34,159 bases of DNA from Jimgerdemannia flammicorona (lineage: Eukaryota). The position numbers and the translations under genes are program-made. Positions within the stretch are counted from its first letter, which is position 1, and each line of letters starts with the position of its first letter. The DNA lies in NCBI GenBank assembly GCA_003990765.1, contig RBNJ01000285.1, positions 1 to 34,159 of the forward strand. The letters are read 5' to 3'. Positions 7,062 to 34,100 of the stretch are shown in pieces. The notes under the pieces were generated by a model. The model did not search any database, was not told the origin of the DNA, and worked only from the letters and a program-made list of their open reading frames with translations.

Positions 7062-7205
7062 GGTGGACTATATAGACATGGTAGACTTGATCGACACGGT
7101 GGACTTGATCGACACGGTGGACTTGATCGACACGGTGGACTTGATCGACACGGTGGACTTGATCGACACGGTGGACTTGATCGACACGGTGGACTTGATC
7201 GACAC
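7062..7205. repeat. Tandem 18-bp minisatellite (ggtggacttgatcgacac) x8
   Basis: Direct reading; units start at 7062, 7080, 7098 ... 7188, and the last six are essentially identical. Confidence 0.95.
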
Positions 7206-7490: not shown

Positions 7491-7509
7491 GGGAGATGAA
7501 GATGTCAGT

Positions 7510-9120: not shown

Positions 9121-9199
9121 CAAGTTGTCATTCTAAATAATTCAAAGATATAAATTTAAAAGACATGAACACATCATCAATTATACTACAAACTCCTCC

Positions 9200-10978: not shown

Positions 10979-11990
10979 GAAAAAAAAAAAGGGGATGTGT
11001 TTACGCGTTTACCCGCGTGGATCAGGAATGTTCTCGAAATTTCAAGTCACAGATTTTTTTGATGTAAGCTTTACACTCGAACAATTATGAATGCCTGAAA
11101 AAGGTAACATATATGTATATATGTTCAGTATAGACAGGAAAGTCAAAAAACTTGTTAGATTCCACTAGGCGGGGTTGATAGATGAACAAATGTTACCCTT
11201 TCTAGCCCATTCTCAAAATTACAGATACGGTGTCGGATTTGCCTTTTTGGGTCATGTCTCGACGTCCAGTCTTTTGTGTATAATACTAACCGTTTCGCCC
11301 TTCGTCTTAGTTTGTGCGCGTGGGTTTAAAAGTCAATAATTACACTGATACTGTTGTATAAGGAATTATTTTATATGATACAACTTCAAACCCTTTTTTT
11401 GTAGAGATCTAAACAATATCTGAAAAGTATCCAAGCTGGTTATTCTATGAAATGTAATGGGCATTTCTTATATGGTACACTCTACTATAAATAATAATTT
11501 AGAGTATTAAAAGTAAGTAAAAGTTATTTAAGAAATTATATTATAAATATTAAAAATAAAATATTAATATAAATTAGAGAAATAGACATTTGATTACAGT
11601 ACCTGAACTCATTCCCCTAATATAGTATAGCTATAAATAGCAGTTATTTCACAAATGTCAAGATTTAACAGATGTTGAAATTTGACAATTATCAAAATTT
11701 TACAAATATCAAGGATCCACACTTGTGAAAAATAACTCACAGTTATAACTTAGCTACCTTATAGCTAGCAAACTTGTATAAATATCTCCAGTATCTAGAG
11801 TGAATAAACCTCAGATCAAAATAGTTCAAAGTAAAGAGAAAGCAAGAGAACTAGTAAGTCTGTAGATAGATATACTTTGAACTTATACTTCTACACTCTG
11901 AGGATACTATGAGAGTCAGAATAAGATCAAGTTTCTAATATATAGAAAACTGCTATACTTCTGAGATTAGGCATCTACTATATTATAACT

Positions 11991-12008
11991 TAGTACCTAT
12001 TGGCTGGT
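11991..12008 (+). other. Primer-binding site of copy 1 (decayed TGG>TAG)
   Basis: tagtacctattggctggt begins 3 nt (act) after the LTR end; copy 2 has tagtgcccattgactggt at the same position. Confidence 0.7.
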
Positions 12009-14171
12009 GATTTAAGATAAATTCCTCACTTTCAAGCTGAACAACAAACAATAGCTACCATTTAAACAATCATATAAACCGAACCAAAATATCCAGATAA
12101 GATAGATATGATATTACCTATGTTCTACAGATATATTTCAGATGAATCAATTATTACCTTTATTGATAATTTCAAGCAATATGCTACTGTAGGAACCCTG
12201 AAAGTAAGATGGTAAGTAGTTCTCATACTCTTCAGTCTCTGAGGTCTAGCAAGAGTAATATTCATAGCTATAATTTATGTAGAAGCAAATAATGATACTA
12301 TGCTAGCAGTATAAAAGACCTAGCTCTGAACTACATACTATATAGATGAGATTAAGTAAACTCTAAAGAATTAGTTCTATAATATACTAAGGAATGAGTG
12401 AAGATCTAAACACATTCTACATCAGAATCTGATATTAGATAATTCTTACTAATTATACTGATATCATTCAAAACCAAGTAGCTGAAGCAACCTTTATAAA
12501 AGAAATCTATCTGAAGATAGCCATGACTATCTGCTTATCATTAGTAGTTCTGGACCTACCACAGAAGGTCACCTATGCTCAGTAATACTAGATAGCCAGA
12601 CATCTACAAGACCATATAATGAAAAGAGTTACTAGAGTCAGAATTAAGACATTCAAGATAACTAGCATATCTCTATTATAATGGTCAATCAAAACACACT
12701 ATAGCTAAAAGCTATAAAATAATAGAGAAACAGTAACTCTATAGAGGAACTCACTAAGAAGTTTGCTGAAGTAACTATCTATCTAAAAGATATAATAAAG
12801 GAAATTAGAGAGAGATCATCACTCAGTTAAGAAGTTTGCTACTATCTCAGACAAAAAAAGAGATATCCACTATAGCTGTAGAGAGGAAGGCCACTATTTT
12901 TATAAATATATAAGTAAAATCAAGTATAAGACTCAGACAAGTAATAGTATCCAAAATAAAGAACAGATCAATATTATTATCTTCAAAGAAATTAGAGAGT
13001 CTATAAAGAAAAATGAAAAGCTTACTCTGCTTAAACTACTAAGAAAGATATCTGCAAGTCCTACAAAAGACCACTAGAAAGGCCCAAGAAGAATCTAGTA
13101 AAAAAGAAAATAGAGATAACTATAGAGAGTGAAATTACCATTGAATAAATAGACCAAGATATAGAGCTTGAACTAGTAGTTGAAGATATTATCTGAGGAA
13201 CTACCTTAGTCAGTAAAGGAGAAAAGATGAAGAAGCTTTACAAAAGCAAGACCTTTAAGAATAATATCTTCAAAGATCTCAGCTAATAAAAGGTTATTAT
13301 AACCTTTGAACAACTGGTAGAAATCTCCACATTTAGGTAATATATAAGATTTGGACTTGCAAAAAAGCCAAAACACAAGACTGAAAGATAACCAAGACCA
13401 ACAATATTCAAGAAGTCTCTGAAGAAGAAAGTAAAGATAATTTCAAGAGCTCTGTCTATATAATCTGTCAGATTGAGATCAGAGTTTTTGAAGCTATTAT
13501 TTATATAAGAGCAGGAGGATATCTCCTTAGTAAGAAAATAGTAGACTACCAAGATTGAGAGGTTGAAGAAGTAATCAGATTAGTATTTATCACAGTAGAT
13601 GGTATAAGAGTCATATCTCTGGAAAAGATCTAAGATATTCCTATTAATATTAGAAGAGCCACTATTCTGGTAGATATAATTATAATCAATATAACTAATT
13701 ATGATATTCTCATTGACAATTAATGGCTTCACAAAGCTAGAGCAATAATTGATCTGAATATTCAGAAGATATAGATTATCTACTATATACAAAAGATACA
13801 AATTTCTATCAATATCAATAAAGAAGTCCTATTCAAAATAAAGGAAAGAGAAAGTAAGTAAAAAGAAGCATATATAGTGACTATTCAGAAAAAGAAAAAG
13901 AATATTAAATGGATGAGTAAAGAGAACTAGGACAAGAAGATTATAGAAGGATATATACTATAAGGAGTCTATTTCTATATAATCAGGATATACTATATAG
14001 AGCATATTAATAATTGCTATCAGTATATATACTAGCAAAATTAAGAAGATCTACTACCAAAGAAGACAGAAGGCTCTTGAGAAAGATACAAGAGAGGAGA
14101 AAGAAGAAAAGAAAGAGAAAAAAGATAACAAATCACCAGCCTTAATAGAAAATAGTGATGATAAAGAAGAG

Positions 14172-14585
14172 ATCAAGGTCAAGATTTGAAAAATTCACTC
14201 TAATATAGTACTACTAGAATATAAGACTGAAAATACAGCTAGAATAGATATTGCCATAATAAATAAATACATCCTTAAGCTTCAGATAATCACCTAACTT
14301 ACAACTAGTCTAGAAATAACTATCCTGAAGAACTATGTTGGAATTCTCAAAATAAGAAGCAGTGTAGCTAGAAGTGAAATCACTATTGAAAGAGAAGTTA
14401 TTGGTTCAGATTATATTGAAGAAATACTATCTATTACTAGGAACTACAATTCTATAATTCTATTTTTAATCAAGAAGAAGGACAAACTAGTGCAGATATT
14501 AATCTTTTAGTTCAATAGCTAAAGATTATAAAAGTCAAGAAGTTGAAGGAAACAAATAGAGAAAATGAATAATTTAGATCTATAG
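14172..14585 (+). pseudogene. dUTPase domain inside pol of copy 1
   Basis: TARIDI (motif I AGxD), KIRSS (motif II), REVIGSDYIEEI (motif III GVIDxDYxG), DKLVQI (motif IV), NRENE*FRS (motif V RGxxGFGS), with transitions. Confidence 0.88.
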
Positions 14586-15534
14586 TTTCACTAGTACTAA
14601 GATTATAGAGCTGGATTACAAGAAAAAGAAAATTATAAACAAGTATAGCTATATTATTAGAAATGAATTTCCACTCAAGAAGGAACTCAAGAAGATATTT
14701 TAGAAATTTGAGGATATCTAGTCACAGATTTCAAGAATATCAAAGGAAAGAGTCCATACTACTAGTGTGATATAGATATAAGAGATATCAAACCAATTTA
14801 CCTAAAAGCAAGACCAATTCCACCAGTCTATTGAGAATAACTTAGAGAAGAAATCAAGCAGATAGAAGAAGCCAATATTATTAAAGAAGCCAGCAGCCCC
14901 GGAGCTTCACCAGTCATACTAGCTCTGAAGAAAAAAAGCAAGTCAGGAGAATTTGTCTCAAGACTCTGCACTAATTACAGAAGACTCAACCTAGTTAACC
15001 AGAAGAATTGCCAACTACTGCCCCTTGTTAGTAATATCCTTGTAACTCTAGAAAATAAAGTATAATATTATAGTATCTTAGATCTGTACTCAGAATTCAA
15101 CCTAATTAGTCTTATAGAGCAGCAAGTGAGAAGTCAGCCTTCATTACCTCAGATGGAATCTATATCTACCTATAAATATTATTTGGAATATATAATATAT
15201 TAGCAAATGATGAATAAAATCTTCTACTATAATATGAGAAGATTGATAATAGTATATATAAGATATGATCATATATATAAGATATCAATAGTATATCCAG
15301 CAGATGATAGAGAAGCTAAAGGAGTATAGTCTATATATCAAGCCTAAGAAGTACAAATTTGTAGGAATTGAGATCCCCTACCTTGGCTATATTATCAATT
15401 GAGATAGAATACACACAGACTCCCTAAATATATAAGTAGTAGCTGTATATCCAAGACCTACTACTGTTACTGAGGATCAAGTCATCATAGGACTAGTCTT
15501 ATATAATTACTAATTTATTAGAAGATTTTCTAAT

Positions 15535-16713
15535 TCTCTTTCTCCACTACCTTACTGGTCACAATAGTTTGGTAGGTAATCTTCCGAGTCTACTTTCTAC
15601 AATTATTACCCCCTCTACCTTAGGTTGGTTTGCTGTACCTATTGCAGGGCAGTGGGAGGGAGGCAATGGTGTTGCCCCTTTATTGGTGTCAGATCGGTGT
15701 CTTCTCCACTTTTTTGCAGTTTCTGGTGCCTTCAGCTGCATCTGGAGTACATCTGTTTTGGTGTAGCACCTTCTTTCTTTTGCCATCGCCAACAAGGTGC
15801 TGTCTCAGTATGTCTTAGGCTACATAGAGAGTCAGCCGACCTTGGGCATCAAGTGCTCAGTGTAGATTACCTGCAGGTTCTCAGTATCTGTAGTGGGGCC
15901 CCCTGGCTTTGGCAAGCTTCCTGGTGAGTGCAGTTCTGGCATAGGTGACTGCTTTTTGGGTGTTTTTGGGATGGGAGGGGAGATGGCCATCACAGATAGG
16001 AGGATGGGTGATAATAGTAGACCAGTAGGGTGCCAGGCTGGGGGCAGTCATCAGGGCTGGGGCAAGTGCTGCTTCAGTGGGGCCTTTTGATTAGTGCAGC
16101 ATGGTTAGGTGGTAGGTCTCACTCTTGGCTTCTTTTGGTGGGTTGGTGGGTTAGGCCCTGGTCATCAGGGGGGGTCGGGGGGCCTGAGGCTACCCATTTC
16201 AGGTGTCTTGGCTGTACTCAACTGGAACTGGGAGCTGACATGGCACCATGATCAAGGCCTACAGGCTTGAGTAGTAGGGTATTGGGGGTCTCCTCCTGCC
16301 TCACATGTAAGTCCTTTACTCACCTTGACTGGGAGAACCAGGCCCTACCCACTGTGTTGTACTTTGATGAGGGTTTTTCTTTACCTGTCATTCTCTTTGG
16401 AGTGACAGGGGCTATTCTATTCAGCTTGGCCATGGCCTTGTACATACATTGGGTTCTTGGGTATGCACTTTTGGTCATTGGCATATGGTTGAGTTTCCTC
16501 TGGTAGTAGGGAGAGCATGGTGTACAGAATGAGGTGCAGGCCACTATAGGTCCTGCTGCATCTAGCATGGTCAAGCTACTGGACAATAGCTAGCCTAGGT
16601 TAATGGGGGGGCAGTGCTTGATGGGTGGTGGGAGAGGGTTTTGGCCTATATAGTCTAGGTTCCCTTCCAATAAAAATCTGCAAAATATTGAGTCTATTAA
16701 AAAAAAAAAAAAA
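15535..16713 (+). mobile_element. 1.18-kb polyadenylated non-LTR insertion within RT of copy 1
   Basis: A15 tail 16699-16713, AATAAA at 16669. 14-bp TSD gaagattttctaat (15521-15534) / ggagattttctaat (16714-16727). Absent from the homologous position of copy 2. Confidence 0.9.
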
Positions 16714-18429
16714 GGAGATTTTCTAATATTATAGGTCCAATCTATAAACTCAATAAGAAGAATATTAAGTTTCAGTATACTGGTAGACAATAGAAAGTAT
16801 TTGATGAACTCAAGATTAGACTGACCCAGATATCCATTCTGAGGAGATCTGATTGAACTTACGAATTCATCCTATAGATAGATATAAGTATAGTTAGATT
16901 AGAAGTAGTTCTAGCTCAGAAAAAAGACAAAGAAGAATATATTATTATATATCTCAGCTGAGAAATTCAAGGAGCTGAAAAGGAATATGAATTCTATAAG
17001 TTAAAATATCTTACAGTCATCTGGACCATAGAAAGTTCCATCGCTATCTTACTGGGAGATACTTCACTATTCAGACAGACCACTCAGCCCTCACTTGGCT
17101 ACTGACTATTAGATAACTTAAAGGAATCTATACTAAATAAATCATAAAGCTCTAGACCTATTTTGTAACTATTATATACTATCTAGGAAGAACTAATGCT
17201 AATATAGATACTCTCTAATAGATACTCCAAAGGACTTCCAATCAGTAAACTAATTATAAATATGAAGCTTTACTATAAAATTATCATCTATCTGAGATAG
17301 CAAAAGATATCCCAATTTCTGGAAGAATAGACATAAATAATTATCAACAGAATATGGAAATAATTTAAAGAAAGAAAAACTACTAGTTATATCCAAATAC
17401 AAGAAGGAGCAAGCTATAAAATCAGTATATGAACTTAGTTATCTCAGAGAAAAAAATATATGATAAAGCAAGAGGAACAATATAATGATCAGGAATAGAA
17501 GAAGATATCAGATAATTTGTCAAGACCTGTAATAAATATTAAAAACAGAAACAAGACTGATGAAATCAGACTCCAGAATTAGTACATATAGAATTAATAT
17601 TTTTTGAATATATTATAATAAATATAATTGGTCCTCTATCCTTAACTTTGACTGGTAATCAATATATTATTGTTATTGTAGACCTTTTTACAAAATGGAT
17701 AGAAGCAGAACTCCTCAAGAAAGTCAGTTCATATATAGTTAATTACCAATTTCTTCAAAAAAAAAAATTATCTGTCAATTCAAAACTTCAATACAAATAA
17801 CTATAGACAGAGGAATAGAATTTATGAACTAGGTTTTTGAAGTTCTCTATAAGAAGTACATATAAGATCTAGCATATTCAGACTACAGCCTATCACTCTC
17901 AGAGAAATGGACAAATAGAAAAGACTAATAAAACTCTTAAGAATATCATCACCAAGATCTGCAATAATTATAAAAACTGGAATTACTATCTGTTAATAGT
18001 ATTATCTGCTCTCTAGAATATCTGATCACAAAGTACTTATTTATTTTTTAAAAAATACTGTTCAGAGAAGAAAGTTCTCAAGAAATTCTATTATTCAATA
18101 GAGATACTGTATAGAAACATATGGATATAAAGATACAGAGACTATACCAAATCAGAAAAAAAGACCAAGAATTATATAACTAAGATATAGGCTCTATAAT
18201 AGAATAATATAGAGAAGATTCACAATTCCTTAGAGATTATTAAGATAGAAGACAAAGTTCTGATATATTAGAATATAGTAAAAGTCTCATAGTTATAAAA
18301 ATTAGAACTCAAGTAGAAAGGGTCTTACCTTGTATAAGATATAAAAAGAATCACCTTTTGGTTATAAAAACTCTTAGTCATAATTATCTCTACTACTATT
18401 TACTAAAATTAACTTAAGAAGTATTACAA

Positions 18430-19236
18430 CTCTTTAATAAAGTACTACCATTGTCCTCAAGATCACTAGTACTGCTGAATGAGCCATAAAAAGGCAATGA
18501 TGTATTATTTTTTTTTTGTAGTCATCTGGACTTTACTATTTATTATCTATTCAGTCTATCAATATATAATTTACAGTATCCCAACCCACTACCCAATCCC
18601 CTGAGAGGGATCCTTCCTGATTTCATTATAATTAAATGCCATCTTATCATCTCTCACCACAACTCTTCCCCCACTCAGCCCATATATCTTCTCTATCAAG
18701 CAGTGCAAATAACCCCACCCCAGCCACCAATCTGTCAAAACATCTCCCATTAGCCCTTCTCATCTCATTACTTACTCTCCCAAACTCAACTACTACCTCT
18801 TCTTAAAAACAAACAACTAGTGCCCAGCCAATCCTACCCAATAATGATATACTATCAAGTCATCTACATATAATAGAGAAATTTTTGATAGTAGATAGAG
18901 TATAATATAGATATATCTGTTATAAATCTCACATTTCAAGACCTATCAGATTTGAACTAAGTTTTAAGAATACTTCAAGTTAAGATAGCTACTAAATTTG
19001 CAGTCATAATTAGGAAAAGAAGACTAGATTAAAGAGTGTAAGCTCTCTTATACCCATATTACTATTGCTAAAAGAGTGTATAAGTTGTTTAAGATGATAC
19101 ACCAGCCCTAGCTCATTTCTAAGAAGTAGTTCTAGAAGACTTTGAACACATCAAGAGATACTATTGAGTAAATATAATAATATAAATTATATAGTATAAA
19201 TAGATATAACTTATAGAAGCTTGGATGTTTAAGTAA
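18430..19236 (+). pseudogene. Cryptic accessory ORF (ORF3) of copy 1, split by the 18509-18840 insertion
   Basis: Frame reads VLKITST..AIKRQ*C / IFDSR*SII*IYLL*ISHFKTY..EYFKLR*LLNLQS*LGKED*IKECKLSYTHITIAKRVYKLFK..EDFEHIKRYY..IEAWMFK*. Colinear with copy 2 ORF3 and ends at the same stop. Confidence 0.65.
18509..18840 (-). mobile_element. 5'-truncated LINE 3' end (332 bp) with poly(A) tail
   Basis: Poly-T 18508-18517 on +. 15-bp decayed TSD gcaatgatgtattat (18494-18508) / ataatgatatactat (18841-18855). G-rich sense strand like the LINEs at 28-33 kb. Absent from copy 2. Confidence 0.85.
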
Positions 19237-19275
19237 ATAGTATACTTTAGAGATAAAATATATTTAAGTGAAAGT

Positions 19276-19722
19276 TATGACAGTTGATCCAAATTAGAAA
19301 TCTAAATCATAGGAGTAGATATTTGATTATAGTATCTGAACCAAATCTCCAAATATAGTATAGCTATATAAATAGCAGTTATTTTACAAATATGAAAATT
19401 TAACAAATATTGAAATTTGATAATTATTAAAATTTCACAGATATCAAGAATCCATACTTGTGAAAAGTAACTCACAGTTATAACTTAGCTATCTTATAGC
19501 TAATAAATTTATATAAATATCTCCAGTATTCAAAGTAAATAAACCTTAGATAAAAATAGTTTAAAGTAAAGAGAAAGTAAGAGAACTAGTAAGCCTACAG
19601 ATAGATATACTTCAAACTCCCATCTCTGCACTCTGAGGACTCTATAAGAATTAGAATAAGATCAAGTTTCTAAGATATGGAAATCTGCCATATTTCTAAG
19701 ATTAGATATCTACTATATTACA
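19276..19722 (+). repeat. 3' LTR of copy 1 (447 bp)
   Basis: TATGACAG (from TGTGA..) ... TTACA; matches 11566-11987; preceded by a purine tract. Confidence 0.93.
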
Positions 19723-20370
19723 ATAAGTATTTAGTTTATTAATATATAAAAATTATTAATACTAATAAAGAAAGAATTATTATTATAAAAAATATTAATA
19801 ATAATAAATAAATTATATTTTATTAAATATTAAAATAAAAATAATATAATATTTAATAATTTTATTATATTATTTTATAATATTAAGATAAATATTTTAA
19901 TTATTAATTTTATTTCTATATATTGAGATATAAAAATTTAAATAAATATTTTTAGAATTAAAGATTATCTATTTTGAGTATAATAATAAAAAAATTTAAT
20001 ATTTTCTAATAATAACTTAAGTATCTTAAAGAATTCTAAAAGGAGAATTTTGAATTTATTTAAGTAAACAAAGAGAATATTTATATAAAATCTAAATAAA
20101 TAAATTAAATAAATTAAATTAAATTAAATTAAATAAAAAATATAAAGATAAGTTTGGATTAAAATAATTAAAAATGATTTATTATATTCTAGAAAGTATT
20201 TATAATTAGCCAAGATAAAATATTTATTATATATTAATAAAAGATAAAAATATCTAACAATAGCTTAGTATTAAAAGAAGAATTCTAAATATTTAAAATA
20301 TATTAAAATATTATATAATATTCAAGAAATAATAAAATAAAATAAAATTACTACCAATTAATTAAACAAT
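19723..20370. other. Extremely AT-rich relic; probably continuous with 11480-11565 as the target of copy 1
   Basis: Same composition on both sides of copy 1; no CpG; no ORF. Confidence 0.45.
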
Positions 20371-20641
20371 TGTAATAAACTTATACTGATAGAATTAATA
20401 TATTATAGATAATCAATTGACTATTAGTTCTAAGTTCTGAATCTTTGAGAGAAAGTACTGAGTTCTAATTATCTATTATAATAGATTAATAAGTCAGGTC
20501 AGAGGGTTATATAATAAGAATACTGCTTTATTCATATATTTGAGAAAAATAGAACTATGATAATTATATACTCAGTACAGAGAATATTTATATATATTTG
20601 AGGCTATGACTAAATATAGTATGCTAGATATATCTATATAT
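20371..20641 (-). mobile_element. Possible solo LTR of another family, split by copy 2 (remainder about 27243-27345)
   Basis: Begins TGTAAT on + (..ATTACA on -), AATAAA on - at about 20527-20532, TATA-like on - at about 20590. Possible 5-bp TSD acaat (20366-20370) / ataat (27346-27350). Confidence 0.3.
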
Positions 20642-21120
20642 TATAATATAGTAGATATATAACTATATAAGTATGTCAGATTTCTATATCTTGAAAACTT
20701 GTTCTTCTTTGACTCCATAGAGTTCTTAGGATGCAGGAGTGGGTGAGCTTGAAGTGTATCTGCCTACAGGCTTACTAGTTCCTTTGCTTTCTCTTTGCTT
20801 TGAACTATTTTAATCTAAGGTTTATTTACTCTAGATATTGGAGATATTTATATAAGTTTACTAGCTATAAGATGGCTAAGTTATAACTATATTTCTGTGA
20901 GTCACTTTTTGATATCTGCTAAATCTTTGACAATTGCCAAACTTTAATATCTGTAAAGTTTTCAACATTTGCTAAAACTTTAACATTTGCTATAACTTAA
21001 ACATTTGCAAAATATGGATACTATTTGTAAAGCTATACTATATTTGGAAATTGGATTCAAGTATTATAATCAAATGTCTATTTCTCTGATTTATGTTCTT
21101 AATTTGGATCAACTATCACA
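20642..21120 (-). repeat. 3' LTR of copy 2 (479 bp)
   Basis: TGTGATAG ... TTATA on minus; direct repeat of 26783-27242. Confidence 0.93.
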
Positions 21121-21161
21121 ACTTTCTCCTAAATAGATGATTCATCTCTAGAGTATCCTAT

Positions 21162-21610
21162 TTACTCAAACTTCCAAGCTTCCATGATTTTTATCTTCTT
21201 GTACTATAAAATTTGTGCTATTATGTTCTCTCAATGGTATCACTTGATATATCCAAAGTCTCATAAAGTTACTCCTCAGAGATGAGCTAGGACTTATTCA
21301 TCTTTTTTGAATAACTTGGATACTCTTTTAGTAATAGTAATCTGAGTATAAGAGAGCTGACATTCTCTGATCTAGTCTTCTTTTCCCATCTCTGCCTGTA
21401 AGTTTAGTAGCTGTTCCAACTTGAAGTATTCTTAAAACTCAGTCTAGTTCTCGTAGGCCTTGAAGTATAAGATTCATAACAAGTATATCTAGACTATACT
21501 CTGGATACTGTCAAAGGATTCTTCTAGAACCAGTAGCTCAGTAGTACACTATTGTCTTTCTATAGCTCATTGTATAGCACTGGTGATCTTGAGGGCTGTA
21601 GCAGTACTTT
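21162..21610 (-). pseudogene. Cryptic accessory ORF (ORF3, ~150 codons) of copy 2
   Basis: One frame with no frameshift: TALKITSAIQ*AIERQ*CTTELLVLEESFDSIQSIV*IYLL*ILYFKAYEN*TEF*EYFKLEQLLNLQAEMGKED*IRECQLSYTQITITKRVSKLFKKDE*VLAHL*GVTL*DFGYIK*YH*ENIIAQIL*YKKIKIMEAWKFE*. Internal stops are revertible to Q/R/W by the prevailing transitions. Confidence 0.7.
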
Positions 21611-24600
21611 ATTGATTAGCTATAATACTTCTTGAGTCTACATTAGTAAATAGAAGTAAAGATGATTGTGCCTGAGAGTTTTTATAGCCAAAAGATAGTT
21701 TCTTTTATATCTTACATAAGATAAGGTCCTTCTCACTTAGGCTTCAGTTTTCATGACCATGAAGCTTCTACTATATTCTGATATACCAGGACTTTGTCTC
21801 CTATTTTGATAATCTCTAGAGACTTGGGCATCTTCTCTGCATTATTCTGTTGTAGTGCCTATATCTTGGTTATGTAATCCTCAGCCTTCTTCCTGATTTG
21901 GTATAGTCTCTATACATATTTCTATATTTATGCATTTCCATACAGTATCTCTATTGGATGATAAGGTTTCTTCTCTGAACAATATCTCTCAAAAGGTGAA
22001 ATGGGTACTTTGTGATTTGATATCTCAAAGAGCAGATAATGCTATTGGCAAATAGTAATCTCAGTTTTCATAGTTATTACAGATCTTGACAATGATATTC
22101 TTGAGAGACTTATTGGTCCTTTCTGCTTGTTCATTTTTCTGAAGGTGATAGGCTGTAGTCTGAATGTACTGGATCTTATACTTCTTGTAGAGAACCTCAA
22201 AGAACTGGTATACAAATTCTATTCCTCTGTCTGTGGTTACTTGTGCTGGGGTCTTGAATTGGCAGATGATTTCTTTGTAGAAGAAATTGGCAATTAACTG
22301 TGCATTGACTTCTTTGAGAAGTCCTGCCTCTATCCATTTTATATAAAGGTCTACAATGATGATAATAGGTTGATTATCAGTCAAAGTCAAGAGTAAGGGC
22401 CAATTACATCTATTGCAATGTGTGCAAAGGATACTAGTTCTATGTGTGCTAATTCTGAGGTCTGATTTTGTTGGTCTTATTTCTGTTTCTGGCATTTGTC
22501 ACAGGTCTTAACAAATCATCTGATATCTTCCTCCGTTCCTGGCCATCACATTGTTCTTCTTACTTTTTCATAGATATTCATTCCTCTTAGATGGCCAAGT
22601 TCATGTACTAATTTCATTGCTTGCTTCTTCTTATATTTAGGTATAACTAGTAGCTTTTCTTTCTTCAGTATTTCTCTATCAGTCTCAAATTGTTTCTATG
22701 TTCTATTTATAATCATTTCCATCTATTCTTCCAGATATTGAGACATCTTTTACTATCTCAGGTAAGTCATAATTCCATAGTAGAGATTCTTATTTATAGT
22801 TGATTTGCTGGTTGAGAGTTTTTTAAAGTGTCTGTGAGAGGACATCTACATTGGCATTAGTTCTTCCAGAGTGGTATATAATGATTACATCATAGGCTTG
22901 CAACTTCAGGCATAGATTCCTTAGAGTTACCTGGTGGTCAGTAGTTAGGTGAGAGCTGAGTGGTCTGTCTGAATAGTGAAGTATCTTCTAGTAAGATAGT
23001 AGTGAAACTTTTCTATAGCCCAAATAACTGTGAGATATTCCAACTTATAGGATTCATACTCTTTTTCTACTCCTTAGATTCCTCAGCTGAGATATTTAAT
23101 AATATACTATACTTTGTCTTTTTTCTACACCAGAACTACTCCTAGTCTCTATGTACTTGTATCTGTCTACACAATGAATTCTTGGGTCCAATTGGGTCTT
23201 CTGAGGATGAGTGCTTAGGTCAGTCTGATCTTGAGTTCATTAAATACTTTTTGTTGCCTGCCAGTTTATTAAAACTTGACATTCTTCTGGTTGAGTTTAT
23301 AAATTGGGCCTGCAATGTTAGAGAATCCTCTAATAAATCTGCAATAGTATGAGACAAGTCCCATAAAGGCTTGGGCTTCAGTAATAGTAGTAGGCCTTGG
23401 GTATACTACTACTGCTTGAATCTTGAGTGGGTCTGTATGTATTCTATCTCAGTTAATAATGTGACCAAGGTAGGAGATCTTGATTTCTGCAAACTTACAC
23501 TTCTTGAGCTTGATATAAAGGCCATACTTCCTTAGCTTTTCCATTATCTGCTGGATAAACTACAGATGTTCTTTGGCTATCTTATTGTAGATGATAATAT
23601 CATCCATATAAACCATCATCCATCTTCTCTTTCATAGCAGAAGATTTTGTTCATCATTCACTGAAAGCTTGCTAGTACATTGTAATTCCAAATAGTATTT
23701 ACAGATAGACATAGGTTCTATCTGGACTGATGAAGGCTGAATTTTCACTTACTGCTTTAGTGAGACTAATTTGATAGAATCCTGAATATAAGTCCAGAGT
23801 GCTATAGTACTGTGCTTCATCTTCTAAAGTCACAAGGATATCATGGATGAGAGGCAGTGGTTGGTGATACTTCTTTGTAGCCAGGTTGAGCTTTCTGTAA
23901 TCAGTGCAGAGTCTTGGAGTGAATTCTCCTGGTTTGCTTCCTTTCTTCAGAGCAAATATGACTAGTGAAACCCAAGGACTGCTGGCTTCTTTGATGATAC
24001 CAGCTTCTTCCATCTACTTTATTTCTTCTCTTAGCTATTTGCAATAGGCTGGCAGAATTGGTCTTGCTTTTTGATAAATTGGTTCAGTGTCTCCTATATC
24101 TATATTATGAGTAGTATGGAGTCTTTTCCTTGATATTCTTGCAGTCTGTGACTAGGATATCCTTGAATTTTTAGAGTATCTTTTTGAGTTTTTTCTAGAG
24201 TGAGAATTCATCTCCAATAGTATAGCTATGCTTGTTTATGGTTTCCTCCTTGTAATCTAATTTGGTAATCTTGGTGCTGATGAATACTCCTCTTCCTGTA
24301 GATCTAAATTCTTTCTTTCCTCTTTCTGTTTCCTCTAACTTCTTAACTTCTATGATCTTTGGCTGAAGAACTGAGAAGATCAACATCTGTGCCAATTGGT
24401 CCTTTTTCTTAATTAGAAATAAAATCATGGAGTTGTAGTTCCTAGCAATAAGTAGTATTTCTCTAATTTAATCTGAATCAATGACTCCTCCTTCAATGGT
24501 TATCTCACTCTTGACCAGACAGCTTTTTGTCTTGAGGATCTCAATATGGTCTTTTGGAATAATTATCTCTAGACCAGTTGTAAGTAAGGTAGTTGTCTGG

Positions 24601-26722
24601 GGCTTGAATATAGTCTCCTCTACTGTGGTAATATCTATTCTAGTTGTATTCTCTGACTTATATTCTGGTAGAACTGTATCAGAGTAGATTTTCTGAATCT
24701 TGATTTTGATTTCTTCTTCATCATCACTGTTCTCTAGGAGAGCTAGTGGTTCATCATTCTCTTTCTTCTCCTTTTCTTGTCTTGCTTATTTCTCAAGAGC
24801 CTTCTGCCTTCTTTCATAGTAGATTTTCTTGATTCCACTGATATACTAGTAGCAATCATCAATATATTTCATACAGTATATCTTGATTTCGTGAGGACAG
24901 ACTCTATGTAGTATATATCTTTCAATGATTCTTTTGTTATTCCTCTTTACTGATCCATCTAACTTTCTTCTTTTTTTTCTGAAAAGTCACCATATAGACT
25001 TCTTCTTGCTCACTTTCTTCTTTCTCCATCTCAGGCAGCACTTCTTTGTTGATATTGATGAGAATTTACTTGGTAGATGATCTGTATCTTCTGGGTATTA
25101 AGGTCAATTATTGCTCTAACTTTATAAAGTCACTGGTTGCTGATGAGGATGTCATAGTTGGTAGCATTGGTTAAGATCACATTTACTGAGATGGTTGCTT
25201 CTTCAACCTCCCAACCTAAGCAGTCTGCTGATTTCTTGCTAAGGAGGCATTCTCCTGCTCTAGTGTTAATAATAGCCTTAAAGATTTAATATTCAATTTG
25301 ATAGGTTGCAAAGGCAGAGGTTTTGCAATTGTCTTCACTCTCTTCTAGAGTCTTCTTGAATATTATTGGCCTCAGTTATCTTTCAAGCTTGCTCCTTAGT
25401 TGTCTTAGCAAGTCTATATCTCATTTGTTATCTAAATGTGGGTATTTCTGTCATCTGGCCAAAGGTTGTATTGATCTTTTGATGACAGAGATTCTTGAAG
25501 ATGTCATACTTAAAAGTCATGGTCTTGCAAAGCTTTTTCTCCTTTTCTCCTTCACTGGCTAGAGTAGTTCCTTAGATGATATCTTGGATAGCCTGTTCTA
25601 ACTCCATATCTTGATCTGTTTTTTACCTTGGCTTTCTGTAGCACTCTCTATCTGTTTCTCCACAGAATTCTTTTTGGGTCTTCCTGGTGATCTCTTGTAG
25701 GGTTGCTTGCAGACATCCTTCTTAATAGTCTCAGTAGAGTAAGCTTCTTATTCTTCTTCATCTGATTCTCCAATCTTCTCAAAGGTGATGATGTTAGTCT
25801 GTTCCTTATTTTGAGTAGTATTGCTTGGCCAGGCCTTATATTTGGTTTTGCTCATATATTTATATGAGTAGTGGCCTTCTTCTCCACAGATGTAGCAGAT
25901 ATCCCTCTTCTTGTCTAAGGTGGTAGCAAACTTCTAAACTAGGTGGCAGTCTCTTTCTCTGATTTCTTTTTCTACATCTCCTAGATGGGCTGTTATTTTA
26001 GCAAACTTCTTAGCAAGTTCCTCCATAGGGTCACTGTTTCTCTGCTGCTCAGTAGCTCTTGGCTGAAATGTGTTTTGATTGATCACTATAGTAAGGATTA
26101 TACTGGTTACCTTGAGTACTTCAATTCTAACTCTAGTAACTCTTTCCATTATATGGTCTTGTGGATGTCTGGCAATCCAATATTGCTAGGCATAAGTAAC
26201 CTTTGGTACTAGATCCAGGACTACTAGTGATGAGTAGATGGCTAGAGCTATCTCTGAGTGGAATCTTTTTATAAAGATTATCTTGGCTACTTGATCTCTG
26301 ATGGTGGCAGCATAATCTGTAAAGATTATCTAATACCAGATTCTGGCATAGAATATGTTTGGATCCTTGCTCATTCCTTGACATATTGTATTGAGCTAAT
26401 CCTTCAGAGCTTTCTTGATCTTATCTATATAGTAGGTGGTTCAAGGCCAAGCCTTCTGTACTGCTAGCATAGTATTATCATCATTTCCTACATGAGTTGC
26501 AGCTGTGAATACTGCTCTTGCTGGTCCTCAGAGACTAAAGGGAATGAGAGCTACTTGCTGTACTGCTGTCAGAGTCCTTACAGTAGCATACTGCTTGAAA
26601 TCATCAATAAAGGTGATGATTAATTTGTCTGAGATATATTCACAGAATACTAGTAGTCTCATATCTATCTTGTCTAGATATCTTGGTTTGATTTATATGG
26701 TTATTCAGGTAGTAGTGGTTAT
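21610..26722 (-). pseudogene. gag-pol (gag, CCHC, aspartic protease, dUTPase, RT, RNase H, integrase) of copy 2
   Basis: ORF-track fragments 23699-24013 (RT: SPWVSLVIFALKK..RLCTDYRKLN..STLDLYSGFYQI), 24195-24428 (dUTPase C-terminus), 22061-22495 (integrase core) and 25934-26149 (gag), plus manual translation. Confidence 0.93.
24294..24710 (-). pseudogene. dUTPase domain inside pol of copy 2, between protease and RT
   Basis: IKIQKIYSDTVLPEYK..TRIDI..TTGLEIIIPKD..KTKSC..EGGVIDSD*IREI..KDQLAQML..EETERGKKEFRSTG: all five trimeric dUTPase motifs in order. Confidence 0.92.
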
Positions 26723-26782
26723 TTATTGTTTAGCTTAAAAGTGAGAAATTTGTCTTAAATTACCAGTCAATGGGCACTAAGT

Positions 26783-27242
26783 TGTAATATAGCAGATATG
26801 TAACTGTGTAAGTATGTCAGATTTCTGTATCTTGAAAACTTAATCTTCTTTAACTCCACAGAGTCCTTGGGATATAGGAGTGGGTGAGTTCAAAGTATAT
26901 CTGTCAACAAGCTTACTAGTTTCTTTACTTTCTCTTTACTTTAAACTATTTCAATCTGAGGGTTTATTCACTTTAGATACTGGAGATATTTATATATGTT
27001 TGCTAGCTATAAGGTGGCTAAGTTATGATTATATTTCCTGTAAGTTACTTTTTGACATCTGTTAAATCTTTGATAATTACTAAAACTTTAATATTTAAAC
27101 TTTAACATTTACTAAAACTTAAATATTTGTGAAATATAACTGCTATTTGTAAGGCTATACTATATTTGGGAATTGGATTCAGATACTGCAATCAAATGTC
27201 TATTCTTCTAATTCATATTCCTAACTCAGATTAACTATCATA
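26783..27242 (-). repeat. 5' LTR of copy 2 (460 bp)
   Basis: TATGATAG ... TTACA on minus, followed by act and the PBS. Confidence 0.93.
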
Positions 27243-27576
27243 ATATATTTATACTATTTTAGATAACTATGACAACTAGTTAGAATTTCTATAAGAATTT
27301 CTATTCAAATTTCTGGGGAAATTTCCAGTGGCTTGTAGATATATAATAATTTATTATATTCTTCTCTTCTTTCTCTTTGCTTACTCATTAAAGTTAGTAC
27401 TAAACTCTAGATACATATCAAACCAAATAACAGTATACTAGACTACTTGAAAAATAATATTGCTCTATTATTCATCATTCAAATTGACAATATTCTAGGA
27501 GAATACTCTACAGAGGTAGTTGCGAACTTGGGGTCAGATACAGAAAAGGACATAGAGTCATTTGATAACTATATAG

Positions 27577-28017
27577 TGTCATGTAGTGGTCACTAAGTCC
27601 TTTAAATACACCAGATTCTCTTCAAGATATATCTCTTAGACTAACTCAAGTTTGTTATAAGTAAGTTCTTATTGGAGTGCCTTCCCAAGGTCTTATAGTC
27701 CTCAAACTTCTTATTTTTAACTGTCTTGTTATCTCTTAGATTGCTTGCAAGAAAGTGTGTATAAGTGAAACCAGAACTGACTTTATTTCAGAGGAAATAA
27801 GAGGGGTATTTATACAAAATACAATTCAATGGTTGCTAAGATATAAAGCTAAATATAAATTCCAATAACTAAAACTACTAAGTTCCAGGGCTGGTATTAT
27901 TTAGTATCATATCAAAAATACCAGTACTGGAACAATTTCATGTTACCTCAGAATACCAGTGCTGGCATTATCCAGTGTTACATGAAAATACCAGTGCTGG
28001 CATTACCTAGTATAATA
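27577..28017 (-). mobile_element. LTR-like relic of a further family, with a 35-bp repeat array
   Basis: On minus: TATAAATACCCCTC (about 27815-27802), AATAAA (about 27787), and an end gaccactacatgaca resembling the main family's end gtccactacgttaca. Four ~35-bp units containing ccagtgctgg at 27885, 27921, 27956, 27991. No PPT or TSD seen. Confidence 0.4.
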
Positions 28018-28214
28018 AAGAACTTAGAGCAGAAAGTTCAGGATCATGGGGGCTTCATCATCATCATTACTGAAGGAGATGAGAACTGCAAATTCATCAT
28101 GTAGGTCACACATTTCATGTACTTCGTGTGCTTCAGGTATGTCATGTGGGATGATGTCATCAATAATGTCATCACATTTGACTGTAGCGGGGAAATCAGG
28201 GACAAGGTCTGGAG

Positions 28215-30524
28215 CTCTCCAGTCTATGATTACCTCTACTAATACCCACTAAGATATCTACCTGCCTATTTCAACTAGCACTGCTATACCATTTCTTGCA
28301 CTACTCATAGTCCCACTCACTATAGACTGAATATTCTGAAGAAGTACCACATCATACCTCCTGACTTTTAGCTAATGAAACAGATACTACTGCTTAACTC
28401 CATCATGCAGACTATTGATATTTAGAGATAATATAAGCAGACTGTTCATCATCATTAATAAAATTGTTTAAAGCTCTGTTGAAATTACCACTATCTTCTC
28501 TACTCTGCTATAGATTATCTCTCTTTGTTTCTCACAGATAGCCCTCCAAATACATGTCCCATTCATACTGCCACAGAATGAATCCACTCATTCTGATGCC
28601 ACTTTCCTGATGTCAGCCATCCTGACCTCATCAACTTCATACCCTTCATCATCCAGCAGTACCACTACCATCGCTATTACTAATTTTGGTCCCTATATAG
28701 TGATATTGAGAAATCTCTCCCAAGCCTCTTGAGATCTGTGAAATATATCCACTTCCTTAATATCTTCCTCTACAAGCTCCTCAAGCACTGCCTGGTACTA
28801 ACTATCAGTTATTATCACCAGCAGCCCCAGAGTGGCTGGCCTGGGAGATCTACTCAACTCCTGAAGCATCTCTCTATTAGCTGAGACATCAGAGACCACA
28901 TCTATTAGGTCATCCTCCTTAGTAATCTTCTTCAGCTATACAACCTCACCAGTCTCTAGACACTCTCAATGAACATTTGTTGCTCCTGCTATCTGAATGT
29001 CCTCCACTTGAGTCTCCAGCACTATCTCTGTGACTTTCTCAAAACTTTCTTCTCTCACCTCCTCCTTATCAGCCCACTTCCTTATTACTGATATATGAGC
29101 TAAACTCTCTACAATACCTAGTTGTGAAAATGATATCTTGGCTATCTCTACCTCCTCTATCTGATTCCTGGCCACCTTCACCCTTACTGTCTCCTCAGTC
29201 TGTGAACTCCAGAGGACTATCTGCAGGCATTCCCAGTTCTCTTTCCACCATCTCTTCCTTTTTCCATTGGTCAGAACCTATATCCAGTCCTTTGCAAACT
29301 TCTCTCATCTCCTTTTTCTCAATTTCTTTGTAGCCTCCCTCTCCTCCAGAGCCAGTAACAATTCCTTCCCCTCCTGCTCAGATCCCTTCCTCCTCTATAC
29401 CTTACACTCTTGGCTTCTAACCCAAATCACCTCTGGCCAGTCTCTACCAAGCCCCATGGCCTCCTTGTCCTCCAGTCTTATCATCATCTCACAGTTGCCA
29501 TTCCTCAGCTTGGTCCCCTCTCAGAACATAAATCCAAAGTCAACTATCTCACTAAAGCCCACCAGTGCCTCTGCCACTATTTTCTTAGTCTCCTATCTCC
29601 TAAGAGTCAGCAACCCTTCTACCACCAGATGTATGGCATACAGATCCCACCTCAGACACCTCACCATTCCAACCTTGATGCTTTTGATCACTAACCCTTT
29701 CTCCAGAGCCTTCACCATCTCCTCCTTCTTTACAAAGCCAATATCCACAGTCTCTGCTGATGAAATAAACTTCAGAGACTCTGTGCCAGCAATATCCTCA
29801 CCCACTAGTCACAAAACCTCTCCGGCAGACAAACCCAGTCCTAGAAAATTTGCTGAGATCACTCATATTGATACTGATTTGAGAAAAAAAGGATGCACCA
29901 CCAGTTCTCTAGAGTCAGCTGCCATCATTATCTTCCTATTACCTCCCAAGATACTAGCAGTTATCCCACCAACCCCAGGAAGCCCACTAGCAGTCTCTCC
30001 CCCTACCACTGGCCCAGTCACCAGTCTAGCCCCAGGAATATCAGTCTCAGCCATCATACCTCCAGACCCCTGTCCTCTGGCAGTCACCTGACCCACTATC
30101 TGACCAGTCACCTGTCTCTCCCCTCTGTCAATACTATGTCTCCCCTGCTCTACTCCTATGGGCCTAGCAGTAGCTCTCCTGCCCCCTATTACTATATACT
30201 AGCTTTCAATACCAGCAGGCCTCCTCTGACCACCTGTCCTACCAGCAGTAGTACCAACTCCTGCCACTGCTGCAAAACTCTTAGAGAGATCTAGGCCAGA
30301 CCTCTTCCTCTCTAAGCACTCAGAGCTTGATGAATCTGGAGTTGCCATTTAATGAAAACTTGATAGATTTTGATGAAACTTATTGTGAACTATTTCCAGA
30401 CTCCTGCCACACTTAATACACCAGTGTAGGCAAAGTGAAAACTTGAAAACATATTGTTTTTCTGAAAGGTATCTATGTGGCTTAGCTTGCTCAGAGTGGT
30501 ATGAGCAAAAGAAGTCTCCTCCCT
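28215..30524 (-). mobile_element. L1/Tx1-like LINE 'B': 5'UTR, ORF1 (30348-28468) and the start of the ORF2 APE endonuclease, 3'-truncated
   Basis: ORF1 MATPDSS..KSFAAVAG.., RRM-like region TVDIGF..KALEKGLVI..VVEGL..FSEIVDFGF..GTKLRNGNCEMMI. ORF2 start MMMNSLLILSLNINSL..YLFH*LK..YDVVLLQ matches the N-terminal APE motif. Confidence 0.85.
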
Positions 30525-31456
30525 CACTCTCTTCCTTCTCTACCTCCCAGCATCTCTACCAGCTTCTCTTCAGTAAACCCTTGTATCCTCTTTCAACTTC
30601 TTCCACCAGACATCCACTGGCAAACTCTCATATATCCAGCTAGTGATCTTTCCCTGAATGTTTTCTACCTATGAATCCCACAGCACCTTCTCAGCCAGCA
30701 GAGAGGAGTTGAGGTACCAATGTCTGGATCTATCTCCACTCCCCCCAAACTGCCCCTACCCTAATAATCTCCAGTGGTCTGACCATGGGCACCACTCCAC
30801 CTCCAGAGTTCTCCAAACATTTTTTTTTTTTTTTTTTTTTTATAGTCTCTTAGACTTTCTCCAAACATCCATGTCCCAGTATTCAGCTATCAGTATTCAG
30901 TCAATTCTTGTATGTAGTCCATTCACCCAGTATATATAAATCTTCTTTTCTCCTCACTACATTCTGCCCATATCTCTCAGAGAGCTAAGGTTCTCCACCT
31001 CCTTCCATGCATCCAGGCCACCACTCCTTCTACCAGCACTCCTTTCTCCATCAGTTCTATCTAACTGAAGATCTCACATCATATTGAAGTCACTCTCTAG
31101 AACATCTACCCCATCCTCCAAGAATGCACCCTTCTCTAAGAGACCCTTAATCTATGCAATCTGCTCTCCCCTAACTACAGGATAGTAGCAAGAGCCAACT
31201 CTTACTGATTCTCACCCTGATCAATGCCATTCTCTCTATACCAAATGGTCTCCCCAACTCCTGATTCCACCCAAATCCTCTTTACTACTCTGTACCAAAA
31301 CAGCCACTTTGCCCATCCAAGCTATCACTCTTCTCCATTCTCTAGTCTACTCCACCTGATTCACATTATCCTCACAACATACATCCTACAGCAAAAAGAG
31401 ATCAGCCTCCAATCTCTTTAGCCAAGTAAAAATATTGTATTACTACTCAGAGCTCC
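30525..31456 (-). mobile_element. L1/Tx1-like LINE 'A' fragment: ORF2 APE endonuclease
   Basis: IFTWLKRLEADLFLL*D..KVAVL..CYYP..VLESDFN(GGDFN)..LDR..LRD..TRID*IL..WSDH..HWYLNSSLL..WWKKLK: APE motifs in order. Confidence 0.9.
30821..30856 (-). mobile_element. 36-bp retro-insertion (15 nt plus poly(A)) with a perfect 12-bp TSD
   Basis: ttctccaaacat at 30809-30820 and 30857-30868. Removing the insert and one TSD restores the APE frame (DVWR|TLEVEWCPWSDH). Confidence 0.9.
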
Positions 31457-31574
31457 TGTAATAAAATAGATAATATGTGATAAGATGTAATGATATAAGG
31501 GATCATGTGACCCAGTGAATAATAATGTCATATGATTAAACATGGTGTCTTTCTCTGCTACAATTCATGTTACA

Positions 31575-33705
31575 CACACTTTTACAACACACTTTCAAGT
31601 TATTTATTAGAGAAAGGTATTAAGGCAATATCAACCAGTAAGCAAGCCAATACACATACTAGGCTGGGCAGACCTGGGACCTTTAACTGGCAGCATGTTG
31701 GGAGAGAGTATGGACTTGGGATGGGATCCTTTAGTGGCTCAAGTGGGCAGGGCAGCTTGGGCAGTAGAGGTAGCACTGGTGGGGAGACTGGAGAGTAGCA
31801 GGAAAGGAGCTTTGTGGACACACTGAGGACTGGAGGTTAGCCGATAGGAGCTTGCAGTGGACAGACAAGAGGGAAGGGGAAGCAGAAGGTTGGGGATACT
31901 GGGGGTGCTGGGCCTTTACTAGTGAGAGGTAGAGAAAGTGGAGCAGCTGCTGGGAGTAGTAGCAGGACTGCTAATGGTGGCATGACTGGGAATCTGGAAA
32001 AAAATCCAGATGTGACTATTGATGTGAGGGCTGGGCAGGTGGGCCCGAAGAGGAAGGGGGATCTGGCTAATGGTGTGATGGGGCTGGCAGTAGCACAATT
32101 ACTCAAGAAATTGATCTCAGAGTTTGTAGCCACCTTGTGCTTCTGGGGCTTGGCAGTGACAGCAAGGATAGTCCTAGAGCTTATCTCAAAGCAGGTGGCT
32201 GGAGCCACCTTAGTGAAGTTTCTAAAGAGGCTGGAGGGGGTTGAGGTGGGCTTTGAGGAGGCAGGTATACTAGATGAGACTCTGAAGGCTGGAGTAGTAG
32301 TTGGGGAGATAGTAGTCCCTATGGTGCATTACCTGAGATGGGACCCCAGGGTAGTGCAGCTACTGGTGAAGAGAGTGCCTATGGTGACAGTGGTCAAGAC
32401 AAAGAGAAGGGTTGAGAAGGTAATGGCTGATTATAGTGATGTGGTAGATATTGGTTTTCAGATTTGGAAGGGGACCACCATCAGGACTAGGGATGTTGAT
32501 GTCAGGATTTGACTGGCAGAGAAGGAGGCTACTGGGAAGTTGAGTGAATGACCAGTGGTGATACTTTGGGAGGCTTTCAGCTATTGAGTGTCAAGGGTGA
32601 AAGAGAGTGAGGAGGAGGAGGAGAATCTACTAGAGGCTCTGAAAGAGATAAGTGGGGCTGTCAAGTAGAGGGCAAAGGCCTGGAGGAAATATGTAGAGTT
32701 GATGTACTTGGAGATTGTGGAGGGGAAACATATCTGTACTGACAAGAGGCAGTGAGAGCAGACCCAGGGACACAAGAGGCAGAGAGAGCTTTTGGCAAGT
32801 ATGAATAGAGGGGCAATAAAGAAGTTGGATGAGGCTGAGGAGTCTAGAGACATTGAAGCCAGTATCTGGGCTAGTAAAGGAGGAGGAGAGGTAGAGGTGA
32901 ATAAGGAAGAGGCTAGGAAGGTGCTGGGCAAGGATCCTTATGTAGATAGTACATTCAAAGTCTGGGAGCAAGATTTGGATAGCACCCCCCCCCCCACTTA
33001 TCAGGAGGGACCCAGTTGGGAAGAGAGGGGAAGCAGAGGATATGCTGATGCAGGAGGCCTAGCAAGTTCACTTTGGGGTCCCAGATGTGGCGAAAGGGGG
33101 CCAGGTGGTAGTAGTTGGCAAGGATGAGCTGGTGGATATCTGGGAGGAGGAGTGGGATAAGACTGCTAGTGTAGGAGTAGATACCACAATGCTGGATGCA
33201 GGGTGGCCAGGGACTCCTGGAGGAAAGGAGGTGGGGAACCTGCTGTAGATAAGCAAGATAATGGATAACCTCATGGCTGAGGATTTGAGAGAGGTGGACC
33301 TGTGTGTGATGTCTGAGGAGTATTGGGCATGGATCCTATATGGAGATGGGGTGGTGGAGGCACTGAAGGTGGAGATTCTTGCAATTTTCCTGGAGGAGGA
33401 GAGATATAAGGTTGATAAGGTGAGAGAGGTAGAGCTGGCAGTTGTTGCTGGTGAGTGAGCTGCCTACTATTGGGCAGAGCATCATGGTTTGTAGCTCTGG
33501 CAGAAGGCCTGTATGGAGTATTATAAGGACTTTGAGAAGAAAGAGGATAGGGTAATGGCTGAACTTCTGGGGGGGTTAGAGACACAGGAAGCTAAAGAGA
33601 AGGGACTAGCTGCAGAATATGACTTGGACTTGATGCAGGAGGACCTGAATGCAGATTGGTAGTAGATGAGTGCAATAAACAATAGTATTTCTTATAAACA
33701 GTGTA
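31575..33705 (+). mobile_element. L1/Tx1-like LINE 'C': ORF1 (about 31628-33662), truncated at the ORF2 start
   Basis: ORF pieces 31532, 31922 and 32792 are in one frame, with a shift before 33261. The protein aligns with LINE B ORF1 (VEVGF/VDIGF, YLRWD/CLRWD, VVDIGF/IVDFGF, EDLREVD/EDIKEVD). An in-frame ATG at 33666 follows the stop. Confidence 0.82.
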
Positions 33706-33756: not shown

Positions 33757-34100
33757 TAGTGCTCCGCAAACCCGACCCGATTAACCCAAAACCTGACCCA
33801 TAAAACAGCCAACCCGGAATTAGACGTCACCCGTCTTTAACCCAACCCGGAATTATACGTCACCCATCTTTAACCTGACCCGGAATTATACGTCACCCGT
33901 CTTTAACCCGACCCAGAATTGTATGTCACCCGTCTTTAACCCGACCTGGAATAATACGTCACCCGTCTTTAACCCAACCTGGAAATGTATGTCACCCGAC
34001 CCGTTATTTACCCTTAACCCAAACCTGAACCCGACCCCTGAACCCGACCCTGAACCCGACCCCTGAACCCGACCCTGAACCCGACCCTCTGAACTCTGCT
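33757..34100 (+). mobile_element. Probable left terminus of a hAT-like DNA transposon or MITE with ACCCG subterminal repeats
   Basis: Starts TAGTGCTCCGCAAACCCGACCCG; dense ACCCG motifs as known for hAT subterminal regions. The other end is not in the window. Confidence 0.45.
33812..33998. repeat. Tandem 33-bp repeat (acccggaattatacgtcacccgtctttaacccg), about 5.7 copies; followed by 12-13 bp tgaacccgaccc(c) repeats at 34026-34087
   Basis: Units start at 33812, 33845, 33878, 33911, 33944, 33977. Confidence 0.93.

Follow-up and report, generated by a model that had tools for sequence, protein, structure and literature searches.

What is the reading frame that lies between the integrase gene and the polypurine tract (PPT) of the retrotransposon copies at this locus, and what would its product do for the element? 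Extra open reading frames (ORFs) are common in LTR retrotransposons and, in the portion of the source available, are mostly without known function (PMC7264820). One LTR element is present twice, in decayed form, in the window (the whole 34,159-nt stretch of DNA analysed): copy A on the plus strand and copy B on the minus strand (Table 1). We find that the frame, here called ORF3, is a selected, separately encoded gene for a 153-amino-acid protein of a dUTPase-bearing Ty3/Gypsy-type element, a type assignment that rests here on the LTRs, the PPT and the domain order protease (PR)-RT-RNase H (RH)-integrase (IN) rather than on RT phylogeny. Comparison among copies of the element further suggests that ORF3 may switch its own element on.

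Table 1. Features of the two element copies in the window, in window coordinates.
Feature	Position	Strand	Basis or remark
Copy A, same element family as B	11558..19725	+	sequence comparison
ORF3 of copy A	18426..19236	+	broken by an insertion and a one-base frameshift near 19090
Copy B, full extent	27243-20641	-	sequence comparison
5' LTR of copy B	26782..27243	-	sequence comparison
ORF1 (gag-protease-dUTPase-RT-RNase H), start approximate	22790..26668	-	broken in copy B
dUTPase domain, two open stretches between protease and RT	24195..24785	-	PF00692 in both
RNase H stop/integrase start overlap, ATG-NN-stop	22790..22797	-	start decayed in copy B
Integrase, separate ORF, +1 to RT-RH	21616..22797	-	decayed in copy B
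TATA box within the integrase coding tail, candidate internal promoter	21703..21709	-	86 nt 5' of ORF3 start
ORF3 of copy B, 153 codons and stop	21162..21623	-	decayed pseudogene (start decayed, internal stops)
PPT of copy B, approximate position	21122..21130	-	sequence
Type-specific U3 part of the 3' LTR, copy B	20900..21121	-	LTR comparison
3' LTR of copy B	20641..21121	-	LTR TATA box near 20854-20845

The two LTRs of copy B are 85% identical, with 7 transversions in 459 columns, and its U3 contains about five 18-nt tandem repeats (21008-20917). The observed/expected ratio of CpG is 0.02-0.04 in copies A and B and normal in the first 4.5 kb of the window; the host heavily decays elements of this family and appears to methylate CpG. 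We take the host to be a fungus, as its genome has three matches to a chitin-synthase N-terminal domain. The family is large: a DNA-level search of the source genome returned 3225 candidates, of which 40 were scored, and a protein-level search returned 2125, of which 150 were scored. At the contig start (15-469) there is one more LTR of this family, 76-78% identical to the others. The pol region of copy A is interrupted by an insertion of about 1.2 kb (15533-16717) that has a poly(A) end and a near-perfect flanking duplication of about 14 nt, and looks like a truncated non-LTR retroelement. Elsewhere the window holds a probable host gene with introns (2383-3573, plus strand), where a match to GDSL lipase is weak and below the cut-off; repeats, both tandem and degenerate, whose units measure 18, 24, about 66, 33 and 12-13 nt (7040-9130 and 33776-34096); and, at 27300-33700, more repeats depleted in CpG, which contain long open stretches on either strand (29165-30091 and 31841-32512, oppositely oriented) that have no Pfam match.

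As had been proposed from the two window copies alone, the frame in copy B is +1 to integrase and overlaps its end; it stops about 30 nt 5' of the PPT. Alignment of copy B with 29 sister copies (together, 30 B-like copies) bears out the common terminal stop, the ORF3 stop column (21164) holding a stop in 30/30 copies, and the integrase frame likewise terminates at 21618-21616 in all 30. Each B-like copy carries 6-15 internal stops in ORF3. That these are mutation-derived is upheld by the alignment, where 258 of the 304 fall in columns that hold a sense codon elsewhere and are reachable from it by a C-to-T or G-to-A change. Between 21566 and 21167 no column of the ORF3 frame has a stop in at least 90% of copies, while the other two frames have 6 and 4 columns of this kind; just upstream, column 21569 is a stop in 28/30 copies, and stop-free copies read through it. 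The original prediction also held that no ATG survives. The start codon is indeed decayed in A and B, but it is present at 21623 in 15 of the 30 B-like copies and at the ORF3 start position in all 20 less-decayed copies, with an A at -3 in the copies displayed. Nor do A and B align codon for codon with an in-frame indel, as had been supposed: what separates them is a frameshift of one base together with an insertion of about 370 nt within ORF3. This insertion (about 18508-18876) begins with a run of T and is probably a reverse-oriented retroposed piece.

Intact forms of ORF3 exist both in the source genome and outside it. Among the 150 scored matches (of 2125 candidates), 37 are stop-free across all 153 residues, a count made by hand on a ranking that favours intact copies. 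Read with its stops as X, the frame of copy B matched nine metagenome proteins at 53-72% identity, and four database cluster members are stop-free and exactly 153 amino acids long. In comparison sets mostly chosen by protein similarity, which lowers dN, dN/dS in ORF3 falls below one as predicted, at 0.09 between seven less-decayed copies and the metagenome contig L031 (7 pairs), 0.14 within 13 stop-free copies (78 pairs) and 0.23 between copy B and L031; the other sense frames of the region give 0.7-2.4, and integrase gives 0.11-0.20. Between the two main ORF3 types dS is saturated, and dN is 0.22 in ORF3 versus 0.06 in integrase. The selection signal comes from between-subfamily comparisons; within the 30 B-like copies alone, an excess of the third-position differences that were first cited is not significant (9/4/12 shared transversion columns by codon position, p=0.09). 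A conserved sense ORF under selection is thus found between pol and the 3' LTR of most copies, and it is, as anticipated, an uncharacterised accessory gene, distinct from the C-terminus of integrase and from any Pfam domain. Two more groups of relatives, at 16-29% identity, came up in profile searches; the matches P0022, P0024 and P0025 were dropped as driven by repeats, and the viral contigs searched yielded no ORF3 relative. The position of ORF3 after integrase is probably old, because record P0074, the one distant relative whose genomic context was read, encodes an integrase 46% identical to that of L031 and, right after it, an ORF3 relative.

The ORF3 protein is soluble and predicted to be all-helical. 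By hydropathy, 19-residue segments of six natural relatives peak at Kyte-Doolittle means of 0.17-0.82, in line with the earlier view that the protein has no signal peptide or transmembrane segment and is not Env. AlphaFold models are all-helical at low confidence (pLDDT 56.4 and 55.6). The pI of relatives ranges from 4.8 to 8.8, which is not clearly basic, and no arginine-rich or strongly basic stretch was found in ORF3 proteins. In 14/14 relatives the C-terminal 25 residues carry a net negative charge, mild in the subfamily of copy B (-2 to -4), and 11 of the 14 terminate in an acidic W/F motif, an ending absent from the P0026/P0034 group. Pfam has no family for the window frame and returned none at the cut-off for four natural proteins or 16 relatives; among PDB sequences the best E values for ORF3 proteins were 0.088 and 0.77; and in the ESM Atlas P0018 led to unnamed clusters with low shared-feature counts and P0026 to nothing usable. 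In fold searches with the weak models the top matches had Z 6.8 (105 residues aligned at rmsd 3.6) and Z 5.5 (74 residues at rmsd 3.1), and Foldseek gave no BFVD or PDB match at E 0.001, results from which neither a new fold nor the absence of one follows. Neither a fold nor a motif for DNA binding was recognised in searches with the sequence and the weak models. Helical proteins from arbuscular mycorrhizal fungi, considered as possible look-alikes, did not appear in the profile-search results, and no likeness to them is claimed.

The layout of the element bears on how ORF3 is made. In L031 and 20 copies fetched from the source genome, gag-PR-dUTPase-RT-RH form one frame (ORF1, unbroken in less-decayed copies), integrase lies in the +1 frame and ORF3 in the +1 frame again. 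The integrase has its HHCC, core and tail regions, without a chromodomain match, and we take the tail to be GPY/F-like. It is a separate +1 ORF in L031 and in all 18 less-decayed copies that cover the junction (2 of the 20 fetched copies do not extend to it), which read ATG-AA-TAA in 15, ATG-AA-TAG in 1 and a decayed start in 2. Among 25 further copies (24 B-like and A) the stop is kept in 24, the ATG is present in 12 and decayed in 13, and the overlap keeps its spacing, the start codon overlapping the upstream stop as in termination-reinitiation. At the IN/ORF3 junction the ORF3 ATG is fixed in 20/20 copies, with the integrase stop 5, 8, 17 or 41 nt 3' of it according to subfamily; the geometry in the B-like subfamily equals that of the RH/IN overlap. 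Before the integrase ATG, four-fold sites show no dip (0.52 versus 0.49 for the backbone) and folding z ranges from -2.0 to 1.2. Upstream of the junctions no complement to rRNA helix 26 was matched above background, and no TURBS-like element was found. A gag TGA common to copy B and L031 was considered as a readthrough site and rejected as decay, other copies having sense codons there. One copy, L033, has R/U5 and integrase junctions closer to L031 than to other source-genome copies, which suggests a mosaic or a second backbone lineage. The usual Ty3/Gypsy layout, in the available portion of the source, places integrase within the Pol polyprotein (PMC5408684), an arrangement from which the ORF3-bearing element departs, and its separate integrase raises the question of how that enzyme gets into the particle.

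To judge from the comparison of copies, ORF3 probably has an internal promoter of its own. TATAWAW occurs at -85/-86 of ORF3 in 60/61 copies, with a matching site at a shifted offset in the 61st, and the plus strand of L031 holds the motif only twice, at the integrase-tail site and in the LTR. Before the integrase ATG it is missing, except for one instance in 1/9 low-decay copies. The box is spelled in less common codons (ATA for 20 of 130 Ile, AAA for 47 of 134 Lys). Its conservation owes something to shared ancestry, C-to-T decay leaves an AT-only motif untouched, and half (6) of the 12 ATA columns in L031 show equal conservation. In the 150 nt before the ORF3 ATG, four-fold sites score 0.25 versus 0.49 for the backbone, below 99% of backbone windows, a dip that is weak given 0.35 for the whole integrase and a single outside lineage compared. 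Splicing or frameshifting, which had been invoked to explain the supposed lack of an ATG, is not needed with a conserved ATG and a conserved TATA box upstream; AG dinucleotides are present upstream of ORF3. An ATG at -62 in some copies was discarded as a decay product, others having ACG, ACA or ATA. In the LTR of copy B, TGACTCA (about 20904-20898, minus strand) stands just 5' of the LTR TATA box, as it does in most copies of both types; we take it to be an AP-1/Gcn4-like site.

ORF3, the PPT and U3 form one cassette that occurs in two deep types on a shared gag-pol-integrase backbone. In 15 source-genome copies, the transversion distance across ORF3 types is 0.012-0.022 for the leader, gag, PR, dUTPase, RT, RH and IN, comparable segments within a type differing by 0.010-0.020, and it reaches 0.128 in ORF3 and 0.162 in U3. 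The divergence jumps at the IN/ORF3 junction and stops before the LTR TATA box. The two ORF3 types, about 70% identical, sit on the same integrase and Gag population. The major types of the ORF3 5' half, the ORF3 3' half and U3 agree in 59/59 typed copies (two of 61 dropped for short U3; four rows are references), 38 being of copy B's type and 21 of the other; at subtype level the association is looser, with 12/59 copies mixed. U3 repeats of 18-21 nt, type-dependent in kind, were found in 11/23 LTRs. Both ORF3-U3 pairings recur in L031, a contig from an unrelated metagenome, one at each contig end. Positions 1-540 of L031 hold the end of an ORF3, the PPT and an LTR of one type, and the other end is of the other type; tandem elements with a shared LTR, or an assembly chimera, could account for these ends, and they offer a possible route for cassette swapping. 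Linkage of ORF3 and U3 could also arise without any functional match, because ORF3 adjoins U3 and divergence suppresses recombination. The dUTPase was originally joined with ORF3 into one module; such a module is unsupported because dUTPase stays with the backbone, at a distance of 0.015 between types versus 0.012 within them.

How, then, would ORF3 be expressed and act? The account that we consider moderately probable is that ORF3 comes from a short mRNA of its own, which would begin at the candidate TATA promoter within the integrase coding tail and run into the 3' LTR, and that stop/restart translation at the ATG-NN-stop overlap would yield integrase. As to function, we tentatively favour, at somewhat less than even confidence, a protein that is expressed from an internal promoter and regulates the U3 of its own element, by analogy with Tas or VANC: the internal promoter, the co-inheritance of ORF3 with U3 repeats and the acidic aromatic tail all fit this reading. 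The protein would bind the type-specific U3 repeats, directly or via a host factor, and once bound would either promote transcription or relieve silencing, its acidic aromatic C-terminal tail being a putative activation region. Counter-defence, as first proposed, would form part of this reading in the sense of anti-silencing. Doubtful, taken as a whole, is the full programme resembling that of complex retroviruses, in which a Gag-Pol ORF, a stop/restart integrase and an internally promoted, sequence-specific activator or anti-silencer of a new family, swapped together with its own U3 repeats, would act in concert.

Of the other explanations, the one that survives best has ORF3 translated through another round of stop/restart downstream of integrase, the product serving as a particle or integrase cofactor, e.g., in recruiting integrase or replacing a targeting domain. 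Chromoviruses carry their chromodomain where ORF3 sits, and the distant relative in P0074 also directly follows integrase. In every case the ORF3 ATG precedes the integrase stop by 5-41 nt, in B-like copies with the geometry of the RH/IN overlap, and the junctions recorded for reinitiating viruses in the accessible part of one source include AUGucUGA and spacings as wide as about 30 nt (PMC2699510). A cofactor would, however, have to reconcile two ORF3 types with one integrase and Gag population; moreover, the integrase stop position drifts, neither a stable RNA fold nor a helix-26 complement was found upstream, and the TATA box provides a simpler route to ORF3 expression. We regard this explanation as unlikely.

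Co-inheritance with the 3' end is equally explained if ORF3 regulates the element's RNA post-transcriptionally, acting in Rev- or CERV-like export, in stabilisation or in protection from small RNAs, with its target in the ORF3-U3 RNA. CERV is a precedent for an accessory regulator of this kind in an LTR retrotransposon, as described in the portion of the source at hand (PMC10309623), but the ORF3 proteins lack an arginine-rich or strongly basic stretch, and no conserved structured RNA was found near the junction, which makes an RNA regulator rather improbable. It is a poor prospect, too, that ORF3 acts on a host protein as a general suppressor of silencing or defence, the types reflecting an arms race in which U3 hitch-hikes. 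ORF3 does evolve faster than integrase between types, the host decays the element heavily, and most stop-free copies belong to one type; purifying selection nevertheless dominates ORF3, no resemblance to a known suppressor was seen and dUTPase does not co-vary. Very improbable, and largely refuted, are readings of the frame as Env-like, as the C-terminus of integrase or as non-coding: ORF3 does occupy the env position, and P0074 has integrase and the relative in one frame, but ORF3 has its own ATG, is +1 to integrase in 20/20 copies, lacks a hydrophobic segment and has a dN/dS far below one, the P0074 linker resembles an out-of-frame integrase tail, the other eight cluster members are 75-167 amino acids long, and a search for longer, fused forms found none, which is weak evidence.

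If ORF3 is a regulator of its own U3, the element would extend Tas- or VANC-like regulation to a fungal retrotransposon, which would explain how the element spreads despite a genome that erases its CpGs and would add a new DNA-binding fold. Two natural stop-free ORF3 types with two matching U3 types make a comparison of cognate and non-cognate pairs possible. The ORF3 family, the stand-alone integrase and the ORF3-U3 swap were not found in the literature searched, which covered few subscription journals and had Repbase, GyDB and the supplements of PMC2864245 outside its scope.

Several components nonetheless have counterparts. Judging from the accessible portions of three papers (PMC7264820, PMC5408684, PMC2864245), ORFs after pol and a dUTPase between PR and RT are both known; plant aORF-3S, rotifer ORF3s and the fungal Gypsy 'add. 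ORF' share with ORF3 its position, sense orientation, presence in most copies and selection, and PosPlaTy3-5 has its dUTPase between PR and RT, as here. Compared with what these sources describe of other additional ORFs, ORF3 belongs to an unnamed family, has no transmembrane segment and no GDSL or DEDDy match, and has its own ATG overlapping integrase and a candidate internal TATA box instead of splicing. Termination-reinitiation is described, in the parts of the sources available, for RHDV (AUGucUGA) and for CHV1 and SART1 (UAAUG) (PMC2699510, PMC10275272). The RHDV site has the same geometry as the RNase H/integrase overlap; in contrast to all three, it would be an integrase that is freed from Pol here, in an LTR element, and no upstream ribosome-binding element was found.

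The closest functional parallels are drawn from similarly partial texts and imply no homology. CERV of Caenorhabditis elegans Cer1 is a non-Env accessory regulator of an LTR retrotransposon, the role proposed for ORF3, and exports genomic RNA (PMC10309623); it is made from a spliced mRNA, and the searches with ORF3 sequences and weak models found no homology to it. Foamy virus Tas (Bel1) acts first on an internal promoter and then on U3 (PMC3185757). The ORF3-bearing element has no env, and no homology with Tas was found in the sequence and weak-model searches or is claimed, but in both an accessory ORF lies beside the 3' LTR, with a promoter inside the upstream coding gene (a candidate one here) and U3 as target (proposed here). 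VANC proteins of Arabidopsis VANDAL transposons are anti-silencing factors with tandem-repeat targets (PMC5735166). These are plant DNA transposons, and ORF3 has no family match and no claim to homology with VANC; what the two have in common is an element-encoded accessory protein whose type accompanies type-specific tandem repeats, in a host that apparently methylates CpG.
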